From positions 4,000,001 through 4,064,000 of the forward strand of contig OZ240241.1 of NCBI GenBank assembly GCA_965198115.1: a DNA stretch of 64,000 nucleotides, written 5' to 3'. The notes beneath the pieces are model-generated. The model was not told the origin of the DNA. It ran no database searches and saw only the letters and a list, made by a program, of their open reading frames with translations. Shown piece after piece: positions 19,387 to 44,182 of the stretch. Numbering within the stretch: the stretch's first letter is position 1; the number at the start of each line of letters is the position of its first letter. This DNA comes from Candidatus Latescibacterota bacterium (GTDB taxonomy: Bacteria > Latescibacterota > UBA2968). The position numbers were made by a program, and so were the translations under genes.

Positions 19387-21025
19387 ATGACGACGCGAAT
19401 TCCCACCTCTCACAGAACAACAACAATGCGAGTTCAGGTCAATAGGTGTGTAAAAGAAATCAGGCGGCCATCTTCCCGGCTTCGACCTGCGGTCCGGTTG
19501 AGTGTTTCTGATCGTAGACTTGTTGTAGCAAGTGTGGCGCGGTGAGTTTCCTGAATCGGCTCTCTGCGACCTTGAGCGTACGCCAGATGAGAGTCGTGGC
19601 GTTCCTGACTTTCTTGAATCGCCTGGCGGCGTTTGTGCGAAGCCGAACGGAAGCAAAGGGGCTCTCGACGACGTTCGTGGTTCTCAGGTGTTTCCAGTGT
19701 TCCTTCGGGAAGTCGTAGAACGTGACCATCCGATCCCAGTCTCTTTCGAGCGTCTCCACGGCGGCAGGGAACTGTGAGCGATACCGTGCGGCAAAGCGTT
19801 TCCGGAGCTTCTCGGCCTCCTTTTTCGTGCCGGCATAGGGGATCTGGACGAGCAGTGCGCGGGCTTCAGCCTGTGCACGCTTGGCGACCTTGTCGAGCAC
19901 GTTGAGGATCTTGTGGTTCCAGCACCGTTGTTGCCGGCTCTCTGGCCAGACCTGATCAACGGCCGCCCAGATGCCCATATTCCCGTCCGCGGCGATCAGG
20001 ACAGGATGTTCGAGCCCGCGATCCCGGAGATCCCGGAGCACCGTGAGCCAGGATTCTGTAGACTCTCGATAACCGGGTTCTATCGCCAGGATCTCCTTGC
20101 TGCCGTCGCTCATCGCGCCGATCACGACCAGCAGACACGCCTTCTCGCGCTCGAGCCCGGCTTTGACGTAGATGCCATCAGCCCAGGCGTAGACCAGTTC
20201 GCGATTATCCAGACGCCTTTCTTTCCAGTCCTGGAAGTCGACCTCCCACTTCCCTCGAAGACGAGCGATCGAGGTCGGCGAAAGCGGCGCGCCATCACCG
20301 AGCAGCGCACGCAAAGACAACTCGAAGTCGCCTGGGAGAGACCGTGGAGATAAAGGTCGGGAAGCAGATCTCCAATGGCCCTGGTTCTCCGGGCGAACAG
20401 GGGGAGGATGCGGCTTTCAAACCGCTCTTCCAGACCACGAACCCGGGGACGCCGGACCTTGATCGTTCCGCAGCTCGTCGAGAGACGCCGGGGCTTGCCG
20501 TAGCCGTTCCTGTAGCCCCTGGAGCTATCGACCTCGGCTCGGCGCTCATACCACGACCGGCCCAAGAACGCGGTCGCCTCCTCCTCCAGAATGGACTGGA
20601 ACCGGCCCTGGATCTCTTCACGGATCCAATCGTCAACCGTCTCCCACGTCGGCATGGACTTCAATGGGGCTCTATGCGTATGTTCCTTCACGGCGATCCT
20701 CCTTCCCAACCGGGCCTCTCACCCGGTTTTGTGTGAATCAACTATCTCACGGGAAGGGTAGGGTCGCCCTTTCTCTTTTTCCACACCTTTTGATTATAGC
20801 TCAACAATGCCCGGAACCTACACTATCAGGATGGGGAATGCTCAGATCAATGTGAGATTTCCCGATGGGGTTTTACTGTCAGATGCGGATTCCGAAATCC
20901 TCAAGTCCAGGTTCGGAAAACTGATAGACAGTCTTCGGGTTATTTGGACTTTGGCCGCTGGAGAACCAAAAGACACCCACGATGATGCAGAAAGCCCCGG
21001 TAGCGACCCTGAAACAGACAGTTGA
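19387..21025 (+). pseudogene. Small hypothetical gene (85 aa) interrupted by IS256; paralog of the C-terminus of 42221..43024
   Basis: Removing the IS and one target duplication gives MTTRIPTSHRTTTMPGTYTIRMG.. Confidence 0.75.
19430..20802 (-). mobile_element. IS256-family element; transposase frameshifted near 20330
   Basis: Terminal IRs, 8-bp duplication AACAATGC (19422-19429, 20803-20810), 1 bp shorter than the intact copy. Confidence 0.95.
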
Positions 21026-21375
21026 GAGCCTTTACATCCCTTCCGTTGCCACAAGACGCCGTAAGCACATCAATCCACATAAAAAATTCACATCTGAAAG
21101 CTGATCCAGGCCGAATAAAGCGTTCTGGTGCCTTCGATTCACGAAAACTTAATTTCCCTTGTTTGTACCGGATCGTGGCTTAAAAAGCCTGTATGGAGGT
21201 TTGGCGGGGGTGAACGGGTGTCGGGAAGGCAGGTAGGACAGTTTCTTTTGAGGAATTATGAATAGAAGCAATTGCGAGAGAACATGAAGACGAATTCATA
21301 GGGAATTATATACCTGAGTGCCCAGGGAGGGGGTCTAGCATTGCTTGACTTCGTGTACCATCAGGATGAAGTCCC

Positions 21376-41738: not shown

Positions 41739-41966
41739 GGGTTTAACCTTTTTGACAACGCCCATCACTGCGCGTGACCGCTACACCTCGGGGATTCGTC
41801 GTTCGAAACGGACGGCTCGGACTGTGACTTCGGCCGATGGGCTCAGCCAACCCGAGAACGTTTAATATAATGGGTTTTCGGGAAACCGCAAAGGCGGGGT
41901 AATACTTGGTAGTGTCCTAATTTGACGGCAGTCCGAGGTCGGCGGGACTGTCGGGTATGGGTGGAG

Positions 41967-42261
41967 CTACCTGTTTTGTGAAGCGATGGACGCACGGACG
42001 GCGTCTTGGGCAGAGGCTACCGGGGGGACGTGGAGAACAGCAAAAAACTGTCGTCTATCGGACCCTTGGACGGGAGACGACCAAGCGTATGCGATAGACG
42101 CCGATGGGTGGCCTTCGAGGGCGAAAGATGTGAACGTCTCCGTCCCAGACCGTCTCGCCCTCGAAGGTTTCTGTTACGTGTTCTGTGCCCGTATGGCGGG
42201 CGTTACATTCGTGTAGGCCCTCAACCGCCTGCTTCAGGGCCGCTATCGGGACTTCCTGCAT
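41967..42261 (-). pseudogene. Passenger hypothetical protein, frameshift near 42125
   Basis: ..ETFEGETVWDGDVHIF then ALEGHPSASIAYAWS..AVLHVPPVASAQDAVRASI in a shifted frame. Confidence 0.7.
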
Positions 42262-43024
42262 CGTCAGCGTCCTCTGCTTCAGCGGCCAAAGACCAAATGG
42301 TCTGGAGGCTGTCTATCAACTTTCCGAACTTCGATTTTAGGACTTCAGAATCCATATCTGACAGGGAAAGCCCATTGACGGGGAATCCCACATCAATCTG
42401 GGCATCCCCCATCTTGATGGTGTAGGTTCCGGGCATTTTGTTTGTCCGATGAGAGACAGGGCCGGGCTGCGGTGGTGGCGGTGCTATGGCCGCGTCCCCG
42501 TCGTTGTCGGCGGATTTATCACCACCTTCACCCTCCAATATACGGGCTTCTGAGAGTCCTGCAAACTGAATTGTCGTCGGGTAATTCTGTAAAAAGGTTT
42601 CCGTTCCTGTTTCGGTAAACCCGTTTCTGCGCTTACAATAGTCCCTCATGTCGTAGATGTCCGGTATTGGTTTTTCCGGTGTGTAGAGGGTGCTGTAGAC
42701 AGGTGGACTAAGGGCCGCCAGCCGGAGATTCTTCATTCTCTCGTTCGAGTCGGGGCGCTCGTCCCTCACTATGTCACGGGCAATATCCGTCAACCGATAT
42801 TCCTTCGTACCCGCGTTCTTCTTGCCCCTTTCCTCCATCAATCCGAACTGCCCCAGTGTGGAAAGGGCCGCGTCGGCCGCATCGTTACTGGACACTAACT
42901 CACGTATCTGTGGGAGGATAGCGTCAAGATGCACCCACCGTGTTCCGTTTCTTTGCTCAAGGGCTGTCGTAAGATGAATCGATTCCTTGAGGTCTATTAA
43001 CGGATGAGATTTGCTCCTTGCCAT
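42221..43024 (-). CDS. Passenger hypothetical protein (possible winged-helix N-terminus)
   Basis: 267 aa, AGGAGG RBS, LSTLGQFGLMEE..YRLTD; C-terminus paralogous to 20807..21025. Confidence 0.8.
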   Translation of the reverse strand: MARSKSHPLIDLKESIHLTTALEQRNGTRWVHLDAILPQIRELVSSNDAADAALSTLGQFGLMEERGKKNAGTKEYRLTDIARDIVRDERPDSNERMKNLRLAALSPPVYSTLYTPEKPIPDIYDMRDYCKRRNGFTETGTETFLQNYPTTIQFAGLSEARILEGEGGDKSADNDGDAAIAPPPPQPGPVSHRTNKMPGTYTIKMGDAQIDVGFPVNGLSLSDMDSEVLKSKFGKLIDSLQTIWSLAAEAEDADDAGSPDSGPEAGG

Positions 43025-43057
43025 AGCGCAACCTCCTGAGATTTCGTATACTTTGTA

Positions 43058-43145
43058 TGGCGGAAGGCGCAGGAATCGAACCTTAGCCGTTCGGCTTCTC
43101 CAAGGTGTATGGCCCGGATTGCGTCACCAGACGCGAGCGCCTTCC
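43058..43145 (-). ncRNA. tRNA-like RNA with a 9/3 acceptor/T-stem fold (allo-tRNA-like)
   Basis: GGAAGGCGC/GCGCCTTCC + GCCA end, D arm GCGTC-TGGT-GACGC, variable arm AGCC-GAAC-GGCT, T arm AGG-TTCGATT-CCT. Confidence 0.8.
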
Positions 43146-43163
43146 GCCCGTATCTACAAAGCT

Positions 43164-43191
43164 AATATAGCGCCTACCCCGGCAATGTCAA
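43164..43191 (-). promoter_or_regulatory. Sigma70-like promoter for the tRNA-like RNA and cargo
   Basis: TTGACA-N16-TATATT. Confidence 0.7.
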
Positions 43192-43246
43192 CCCCCAATT
43201 CTTGAAATTGGGGGGTTTTTCGTGCCCCCAAACACCAAAATTGGCG

Positions 43247-43275
43247 TTGACACAGTGAGCGCCAATCTTTATGTT
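43247..43275 (+). promoter_or_regulatory. Sigma70-like promoter for the transposase
   Basis: TTGACA-N17-TATGTT; inverted repeat TTGGCG..CGCCAA brackets the -35. Confidence 0.65.
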
Positions 43276-43306
43276 AGGGTTACACGTTAAGGTAAAGGGC
43301 ACCGCA

Positions 43307-44128
43307 ATGGCTAACAATCTGAAGCGCGAAAAGCAGGAAATGGCGATTAACTGCCTGGTGGAGGGAATGAGCGTCCGTTCCGTCGAGCGGCTGACGGGCG
43401 TCCACCGCGATACGATCCTGCGGTTGATGGTGCGGGTCGGGAACGGCTGTAAGACGATGATGGATGAAACCCTACGGGGTCTGTCCTGCAAGCGGATTCA
43501 AGTGGACGAAGTGTGGGGTTTCATCGCGAAGAAGGAACGGCACATCAAATACGGCGATCCCGAGGAATACGGCGATGTTTGAACGTGGGTCGCGCTTGAC
43601 GCAGACACCAAGCTGGTTCCGGCCTATAGAGTGGGCAGGAGGAACGGGCAGGTTGCGCGGGAGTTTCTTGGCGACCTGGCCTCCCGCTTGGACTCACGTA
43701 TTCAGCTTTCGTCCGACGCCTTTAGTGCTTACAAGGATGCCGTAGATGAACAGTGGGGCCCGGCCGTCGATTACGCGCAAATCGTAAAATCCTTTGAAGC
43801 GGAGCCCATCGGGCCGGGTAGGTATTCGCCCCCGAAGGTGTCGGCCGTCCACAAAGACGTGATTATGGGTGAACCCGACATGGGCCACGTATCCACGTCC
43901 TACGTCGAGCGCCAGAACCTAACGATGCGCATGTCGATGCGTCGGCTGACGCGGCTCACCAATGCCTTCAGCAAAAAGGGAGATAACCTGAAAGCGGCTG
44001 TCTCCCTACACTTTGCTCATTACAATTTCGCCCGCATCCATAAGACGCTGAGGGTGGCCCCGGCGATGGAAGCGGGCGTGACGAATCGGCTTTGGACCGT
44101 GGGTGATCTACTCGACTGCGCGGCGTGA
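43307..44128 (+). pseudogene. IS1-family transposase with in-frame TGA at codon 92 (expected Trp)
   Basis: LVEGMSVRS..HRDTILRL, QVDEVW, DV*TWVALD, STSYVERQNLTMRM..TNAFSKK. Confidence 0.88.
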
Positions 44129-44182
44129 AATTAGGACACTACCTAATACTTACTCCACTGCAGACTAAGCGAATCTAAAGGC

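Follow-up and report, generated by a model that had tools for sequence, protein, structure and literature searches.

A covarying 9/3 allo-tRNA-like RNA in a broken IS1-family element, possibly a disarmed copy of a mobile RNA-only toxin-antitoxin module

The IS1-family element, its cargo gene and the RNA

The stretch of DNA analysed here (the window, 64,000 nucleotides from a Candidatus Latescibacterota bacterium, contig OZ240241.1) contains an IS1-family element of 2236 bp (41908-44143), whose 18-bp inverted ends match at 17 of 18 positions and which is flanked by an 8-bp target duplication, TAATACTT (Table 1). The original prediction, that an RNA is carried as cargo inside an IS1-family element with inverted repeats and a target duplication, is borne out in this respect. 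The transposase is of the IS1 DDE type, matching Pfam PF03400 with 27 bits (cut-off 24.1) and having its best match in NF033558, where 69.6 bits stay under the cut-off of 100. The intact transposase expected of an autonomous IS1 element is missing, as the frame is interrupted by a TGA at a site that is tryptophan in 77 of 80 relatives. A tblastn search with the intact homologue from locus L001 recovers the small accessory gene as two pieces in different frames (51-53% identity). Because of these two lesions, both additional to the features described before, the element, which is single-copy, is probably dead; the accessory-gene frameshift may be a sequencing error. The element presumably belongs to the IS1 subgroup ISMhu11. 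It shares with IS1 elements that carry passenger genes the single-ORF DDE transposase, the GGTA- ends, the 8-bp duplication and the variable cargo, but unlike in the usual passengers the cargo is a structured RNA module.

Table 1. Features of the IS1-family element and its cargo, in window coordinates.
Feature	Position	Strand	Remarks
Left target-site duplication copy (TAATACTT, 8 bp)	41900..41907	+	identical to 44144-44151
Left terminal inverted repeat	41908..41925	+	17/18 against right end; same end type in 60/80 related elements
Small accessory gene, frameshifted	41970..42261	-	typical of such IS1 elements
267-aa cargo gene	42221..43024	-	predicted winged-helix plus helical domain at the N-terminus and a helix at the C-terminus, joined by a disordered linker; family without a name
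Predicted weak antisense promoter TAGCGC-17-TATACT	43024..43052	+	overlaps cargo RBS and start codon
9/3 allo-tRNA-like RNA	43058..43145	-	88 nt, G73, encoded CCA, 2-bp junction helix
Anticodon loop CC-AUA-CA (C33, C37)	43106..43112	-	family consensus is stop-reading UUA/CUA
Near-consensus sense promoter TTGACA-16-TATATT	43164..43191	-	-10 box ends 18 nt before RNA
Hairpin and U-run, predicted terminator of antisense RNA (about 160 nt)	43192..43222	+	weak alone
Predicted transposase promoter TTGACA-17-TATGTT	43247..43275	+	–
IS1-family DDE transposase	43307..44128	+	in-frame TGA at 43580-43582
Right terminal inverted repeat	44126..44143	-	17/18 against left end
Right target-site duplication copy	44144..44151	+	identical to 41900-41907

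Related traces occur elsewhere. A second IS1-family element with an 8-bp duplication lies outside the window (G000:C1, about 5954090-5956550) and carries a 7/5 tRNA with a UAU anticodon directly before its transposase, with an A-run and hairpin ahead as in the 9/3 family described below; a gene in it presumably resembles DUF5343. Bare ends of the same IS type are found at G000:C1 6187758 and 7132317, and 20 tRNA genes, one of them for isoleucine with a UAU anticodon, form an array at 2870558-2872531 of the same sequence. Within the window, the 3′ end of the cargo gene recurs at positions 20798-21031 as a remnant with 78% identity, interrupted by another insertion sequence.

The cargo frame is intact, in contrast to the two other genes of the element, and its earlier description as uncharacterised stands: Pfam, NCBIfam and PADLOC offer no family for the protein and no recognised toxin domain, a word-index search returned only the protein itself, and Foldseek with the structure model gave nothing at E<=0.001. 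The model (pLDDT 73.8) has weak matches to winged-helix structures (best Z 8.7, a common fold), a PDB profile search likewise gave weak winged-helix matches only, and we predict a winged-helix protein on this basis. DUF5343 (0.89, 42% of members) is a lead only, and a search for literature on it found none. The protein family has 1051 representatives at E<=0.001, among relatives of the RNA the protein matches the neighbour gene in locus L110 (E 2e-11), and a family profile finds 7 of 26 9/3 loci against 0 of 28 controls (six of those seven helped to build the profile) and 3 of 80 transposase loci. The RNA-plus-protein pairing proposed earlier is supported in that the cargo family again lies beside the RNA at other loci. 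Among 30 mapped loci the gene is downstream of the RNA only in the window, being elsewhere upstream, co-oriented or divergent, and the divergent genes have promoters of their own near -250. Since side and direction vary, the cargo appears to be a frequent companion and possible regulator of the RNA rather than a fixed operon partner. This layout and the lack of a recognised toxin domain speak against the earlier suggestion that the RNA is an antitoxin to the 267-aa protein, as do the flanks discussed below, where it is the tRNA-bearing transcript that looks both toxic and controlled, with a cis-antisense RNA as its antidote.

The RNA gene was checked against the window, and the minus-strand sequence, coordinates and segmentation into stems are as originally written, except that only 43058-43145 of the range then given (43058-43191) is the RNA proper, while the remainder includes the promoter. 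This TTGACA-N16-TATATT promoter was found where it had been placed (43191-43164), as was the 33-nt spacing between CCA and cargo gene; with a score of 13.6 it is the sole site of at least 8 within 70 nt upstream among the 46 family members (two flanks are too short). The minimum-energy fold (-39.7 kcal/mol, z -2.55, with 2 of 200 shuffles equally good) reproduces the 9-bp acceptor, the 5-bp D stem with its 4-nt loop, the 3-bp T stem and the long variable arm, here a 4-bp stem and tetraloop at the short end of the family range, and the 3′ side provides G73 and an encoded CCA. The anticodon arm is less clear-cut, since the bulged stem with a 7-nt loop that had been read there is obtained at -38.6 kcal/mol, 1.1 above the fold with 6 bp and an 8-nt loop that gives the minimum; the homologues settle the 7-nt register CC-AUA-CA.

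As had been cautioned for standard tRNA callers, ARAGORN makes no call on the RNA, and its best Rfam match, tRNA-Sec (RF01852), reaches 35.8 bits (E 1.3e-4), under the gathering score of 47. The resemblance to tRNA-Sec (selC) lies in the shape of the D arm and the long variable arm, but the branch is 12 bp rather than 13 bp and the anticodon is AUA, not UCA. As the host genome also has its own, separate tRNA-Sec gene, a degenerate selC can be dismissed. So can an ordinary host tRNA fragment, which would have undone the prediction: the RNA is single-copy in the host genome and its best matches there are short T-arm or chance pieces. Suppression of the TGA in its own element is likewise out, given the AUA anticodon and the tryptophan found there in relatives. 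Positions 43054-43060, comprising the 3′ end of the RNA and its trailer (CCA then TACA), repeat the 7-nt anticodon loop exactly, a repeat that is absent in relatives and possibly a chance match.

The 9/3 RNA family

Relatives were collected in two ways. The transposase search kept 80 of 150 related loci, 60 of them bounded by matching ends, and an RNA-only pattern search gave 5 viral and 119 metagenomic loci which, with L010, contain 127 matches, 109 of them distinct. Of these, 44 passed a 9/3 filter; L084 and L142 were dropped as 8/4 or ordinary, and L121 and the window RNA were added, giving a plain alignment of 44 rows. Both sides change in 19 of its 29 pairs, which none of 500 shuffles reached and none of six slid controls approached. 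A model built from this alignment and run on the 80 transposase loci re-found L010 and added two 9/3 members with different acceptor stems, L015 and L025, and in the resulting fitted alignment of 46 rows 23 of 29 pairs covary, a number biased by the fitting and by most acceptor positions being fixed in the pattern. Compensatory changes occur in every helix of the fitted alignment, including all five D-stem pairs as well as T-stem and outer acceptor pairs. An extra junction helix joins nucleotides 10-12 to the base of the variable arm (C-G 26, U-A 10 and A-U 3 in the plain alignment) and is cut to 2 bp in the window RNA. The family has 67 G-U against 17 A-C, so it is the fold of the tRNA strand that is selected. 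The covariation asked for originally is therefore present, and judged by its relatives the window RNA is real and a member of a set of 46 covarying 9/3 allo-tRNAs.

IS1 marks accompany 17 of the 26 9/3 loci with fetched flanks, against 1 of 28 8/4-type loci and 0 of 19 chance matches. A general enrichment of ordinary tRNAs in IS1 elements was not seen, since 5 lie inside and 5 outside, with 4 unplaced. Members of the 9/3 family are rare: five hold-out surveys of 151 genomes each (755), with loci retrieved only for the best matches, returned mostly tRNA-Sec and tRNA-Ser and 8/4 types and added a single degenerate member, L230, and three further viral scans and one plasmid search brought no additional 9/3 member.

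In the family the anticodon stem keeps 3-4 bp. The loop ends in UACA in 31 members, where the anticodon is UUA in 21, CUA in 9 and AUA only in the window copy, a singleton among all 46; position 34 is thus U or C in 30 of 31, with U35-A36 kept. Eight other members read UAU. C37, the short anticodon stem and a non-U position 33 in 7 of the 31 would argue against efficient decoding. CCA is encoded in 2 of 43 relatives besides the window RNA.

The (9/3) allo-tRNAs were defined by Mukai et al. (2017; PMC5389517), whose text lists UAA-reading 9/3 species and describes the same 9-bp acceptor and 3-bp T stem, tRNA-Sec-like D arm, long variable arm and G73, so the identity assigned to the window RNA from its sequence is supported by both fold and relatives. 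Our family differs from the types described there in having C37, a shortened anticodon stem and a junction helix that covaries, five-stem junctions being mentioned there as possible only for UAU types. Term searches of the table in PMC5389517 did not return this subfamily, and the IS1-bounded context, the antisense promoter and the mini-ORF were not found in its main text or supplement, as far as these were covered; its Figure 4A may show related loci. A literature search, without most subscription papers and bioRxiv supplements, brought up nothing on allo-tRNAs that are carried by IS1 elements and paired with an antisense promoter or a leader resembling CreT. The window RNA belongs to a structural class already known, as a variant that is new in being borne by IS1 and whose proposed control logic is testable and probably new.

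Signals on either side of the RNA

Besides its fold, IS1 context and stop-reading anticodons, the family displays an antisense promoter with a hairpin and a rare-codon mini-ORF, all of which can be read directly from the sequences. The promoter is of the sigma70 type and stands just past the 3′ end of the RNA, facing back through it. It scores at least 8 in 22 of 46 members; facing the opposite way 0 of 46 reach this score, and among 8/4 types and host tRNAs 1 of 38 and 2 of 74 do, respectively. Scores are in bits from an E. coli matrix, while the hosts are distant, and promoter and mini-ORF alike were first noticed and then counted in the same set of loci. The sites are confined to the first 20 nt (22, with 0, 0 and 0 in the bins that follow), against a background of 450 of 18652 windows (2.4%) in IS1 elements, and they are present in 8 of 25 flank clusters, one of which comprises 16 of the 46 members, a dependence through kinship that affects these counts. 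In most cases 5-14 nt separate the end of the -10 box from the discriminator, which would place the start of an antisense transcript near the complement of the acceptor end. On the other side, the hairpin 5′ of the RNA is preceded by an A-run in 14 of 44 members and followed by a U-run in 3 of 44, the polarity of a terminator for antisense transcription. Sense promoters lie at -150 to -190 in several members.

The site in the window copy has the same register as in the closest relative, L121, and is not significant alone (best score 6.0, p=0.32); for the antisense terminator one was found against 2.4 expected in shuffles. In five loci (L093, L129, L148, L155 and L164) a small gene 100-350 nt 3′ of the RNA is aimed at the antisense promoter and resembles, by eye, a ribbon-helix-helix repressor (translation seen for L129, L155 and L164).

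The sense leader contains a Shine-Dalgarno sequence, an AUG, tandem AGA/AGG and then a hairpin in 12 of 43 members with enough flank, a strict rule that gives 0 of 30 at 8/4 types and 4 of 1396 in the background; a broader rule, chosen afterwards, gives 19 of 42 against 0 of 30 (background 16 of 3674) in 9 of 25 flank clusters. A strong antisense promoter is found in 15 of the 19 with a mini-ORF and in 6 of the 23 without (Fisher p 0.0016, a value that the kinship among members makes too favourable). More than half of the members, L121 included, are without a recognisable mini-ORF, and the window copy has no rare-codon mini-ORF on either strand of the element. The leader codons vary (AGA, AGG, ACA, GTA, ATA, TCA). 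A shift of the anticodon register to UAC, which would read valine for GTA-GTA leaders, is out, as the closing pairs covary in the 7-nt register and the leader codons do not follow loop type.

The arrangement is that of CreT from CreTA, for which the account in PMC8501985 gives as critical features a Shine-Dalgarno sequence, an AUG, a pair of adjacent rare codons (AGA/AGG/AUA) and a stem-loop further downstream, the set found in the 12 relatives and absent from the window copy. Unlike CreT as described there, the mini-ORF of our family is fused to an allo-tRNA and carried by an insertion sequence, and the predicted antidote is a cis-antisense RNA rather than the CRISPR-guided CreA. Another comparison is the type VIII pair SdsR-RyeA, in the account of PMC10767807 two RNAs from opposite strands of the same DNA, as predicted here, but with the difference that our predicted toxin would act on tRNA supply or decoding and is mobile. 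The promoter and terminator signals for RNAs on opposite strands are present in the family and weak in the window copy.

A proposed mobile RNA module and its alternatives

What could such a locus do? Our preferred reading, to which we give a probability of about one half, is that the covarying 9/3 allo-tRNA in the broken IS1 element of the window represents a disarmed copy of a mobile toxin-antitoxin module made only of RNA. From the genomic signals we infer transcription, processing, charging, toxicity and neutralisation alike. The predicted sense transcript would consist of a rare-codon mini-ORF and a stop-reading allo-tRNA and would be silenced by the predicted antisense RNA. It would harm translation in that the mini-ORF, like CreT, captures rare tRNAs, and/or through serine read-through of UAA and UAG; in the text of PMC5389517 some allo-tRNAs insert serine and kill E. 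coli when induced. The antisense RNA, starting at about the complement of the acceptor end and stopping at the hairpin, would pair with the entire tRNA domain and cause its destruction, and either loss of the element or an end to fresh transcription would unmask the toxin. The window copy is likely disarmed because it has no mini-ORF, the one part of the module that it lacks, an AUA anticodon, a weak antisense promoter and a strong promoter directly before the RNA. Its RNA would then do little harm and serve the winged-helix gene as a leader in the shape of a tRNA, and a disarmed derivative that now leads the cargo gene is the simplest reading of this copy.

The same leader could instead act in control. 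An unlikely explanation is that the mini-ORF is an attenuator-like sensor of rare tRNAs and not a device of addiction: a shortage of rare tRNA (through phage, anticodon nucleases or starvation) would stall the ribosome, the leader would refold, and RNase P would free the stop-reading allo-tRNA and abort growth, with the antisense RNA setting the threshold. Such a sensor is suggested by leader codons that are among the host's rarest and that change while the anticodon stays stop-reading, and by the loop of the first leader hairpin, which can pair with the nucleotides immediately 5′ of the tRNA over a mean of 6.6 bp against 5.7 bp in shuffles (maximum 6.4 in 200 shuffles), with motifs that differ between two subgroups yet match within each. 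The pairing is modest, however, with a non-cognate mean of 5.9 bp and 7 bp reached in 9 of 19; a sense-oriented U-run follows the hairpins in just the three members counted above; and the elements concerned match CreT, which is itself a toxin. We consider it rather improbable that the tRNA-like domain never decodes and is a structural handle (an RNase P/Z processing site, a 3′ stabiliser of the mini-ORF RNA or a decoy for a synthetase or nuclease, and in the window a processing leader of the cargo mRNA), since a pure handle has no need of the pyrimidine 34 and U35-A36 kept in 30 of 31 loops and the co-oriented position 33 nt before the cargo gene, which would suit it, is peculiar to the window. 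The extra junction helix, the short anticodon stem, C37 and the freedom of positions 32-33 would nevertheless fit a handle, and so would the six odd-junction allo-tRNAs reported as inactive in E. coli translation in the same text, PMC5389517, where UAU types are placed near transposon and toxin-antitoxin genes.

The intact stems and gained CCA of the window RNA fit decay poorly and may leave room for a retargeted RNA that is still selected. In its explicit form, a well-expressed, serine-charged tRNA that misreads UAU (Tyr) or mimics tRNA-Tyr under control of the winged-helix protein, this seems to us improbable: the near-consensus promoter, the G73 and the one intact frame among broken genes agree with it, but AUA is unique in the family and sits in a loop with C33 and C37 on a bulged stem, within a single-copy element with a broken transposase. 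Least of all do we expect a neutral allo-tRNA that hitch-hikes in IS1 elements while the back-facing promoter serves other genes, a very remote prospect that for the family is already largely refuted. The IS1 group does carry varied cargo, with the RNA in only 3 of 80 transposase-derived loci, and the back-facing promoter reaches at least 8 more often beside a divergent neighbour (5 of 6 against 4 of 18 in a tally). Yet compensatory changes run through all helices, the divergent genes have promoters of their own, which also disfavours the site as a cargo-gene promoter, and its distance is fixed in at least four gene layouts, even without a gene in its path (L129, L155, L085).

Allo-tRNAs, first described in 2017, serve as tools of genetic-code engineering, and the proposed module bears on their role in nature and on how their carriers survive. 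If the toxin-antitoxin reading is true, it would add a third kind of RNA-only toxin-antitoxin system, with a tRNA as part of the toxin, and would have insertion sequences moving stop-codon suppression between phyla; the window copy is mainly an entry point and a natural disarmed control. In a bolder form, which we put forward only tentatively, IS1 elements across many soil and sediment phyla would carry a mobile all-RNA weapon against translation, combining a CreT-like trap or sensor and a stop-reading tRNA in one transcript locked by full-length antisense RNA, and firing once the host ceases to transcribe or runs out of rare tRNAs, for instance on phage infection.

The 8/4 types appear to be locked differently, so that allo-tRNAs would come with two different antisense locks. 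In 16 of 42 8/4-type RNAs a 10-19-nt complement of their own anticodon arm lies downstream, each behind what looks by eye like a -10 box, while no separate anti-anticodon RNA of more than 11 nt lies within 300 nt of the 9/3 members, the window included. If the modules work as proposed, allo-tRNAs as a class would be the toxins of RNA-RNA modules, which would explain their existence. The 16 loci (L086, L087, L095, L099, L100, L102, L114, L137, L140, L146, L176, L177, L182, L191, L206 and L224) have GAU, GAC or GAG anticodons, and the complement is exact, lies 50-200 nt 3′, changes with the arm and is usually followed by a terminator-like hairpin.

Other unusual tRNAs were seen on the way. Short-arm ACU tRNAs lie by IS1 transposases at L018:557-630, L053:1898-1970 and L064:3313-3386, with antisense promoter scores of 8.8, 7.5 and 15.4, respectively, and further odd tRNAs lie within the elements of L028, L032, L046 and L060. 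In L083, L105, L229, L246 and L248, 8/4-type allo-tRNAs, mostly UAU, adjoin transposases of the IS1595 type, not IS1, and L096, L104, L115, L119, L132, L138 and L143 hold tandem arrays of long-arm allo-like tRNAs with GCU anticodon loops.
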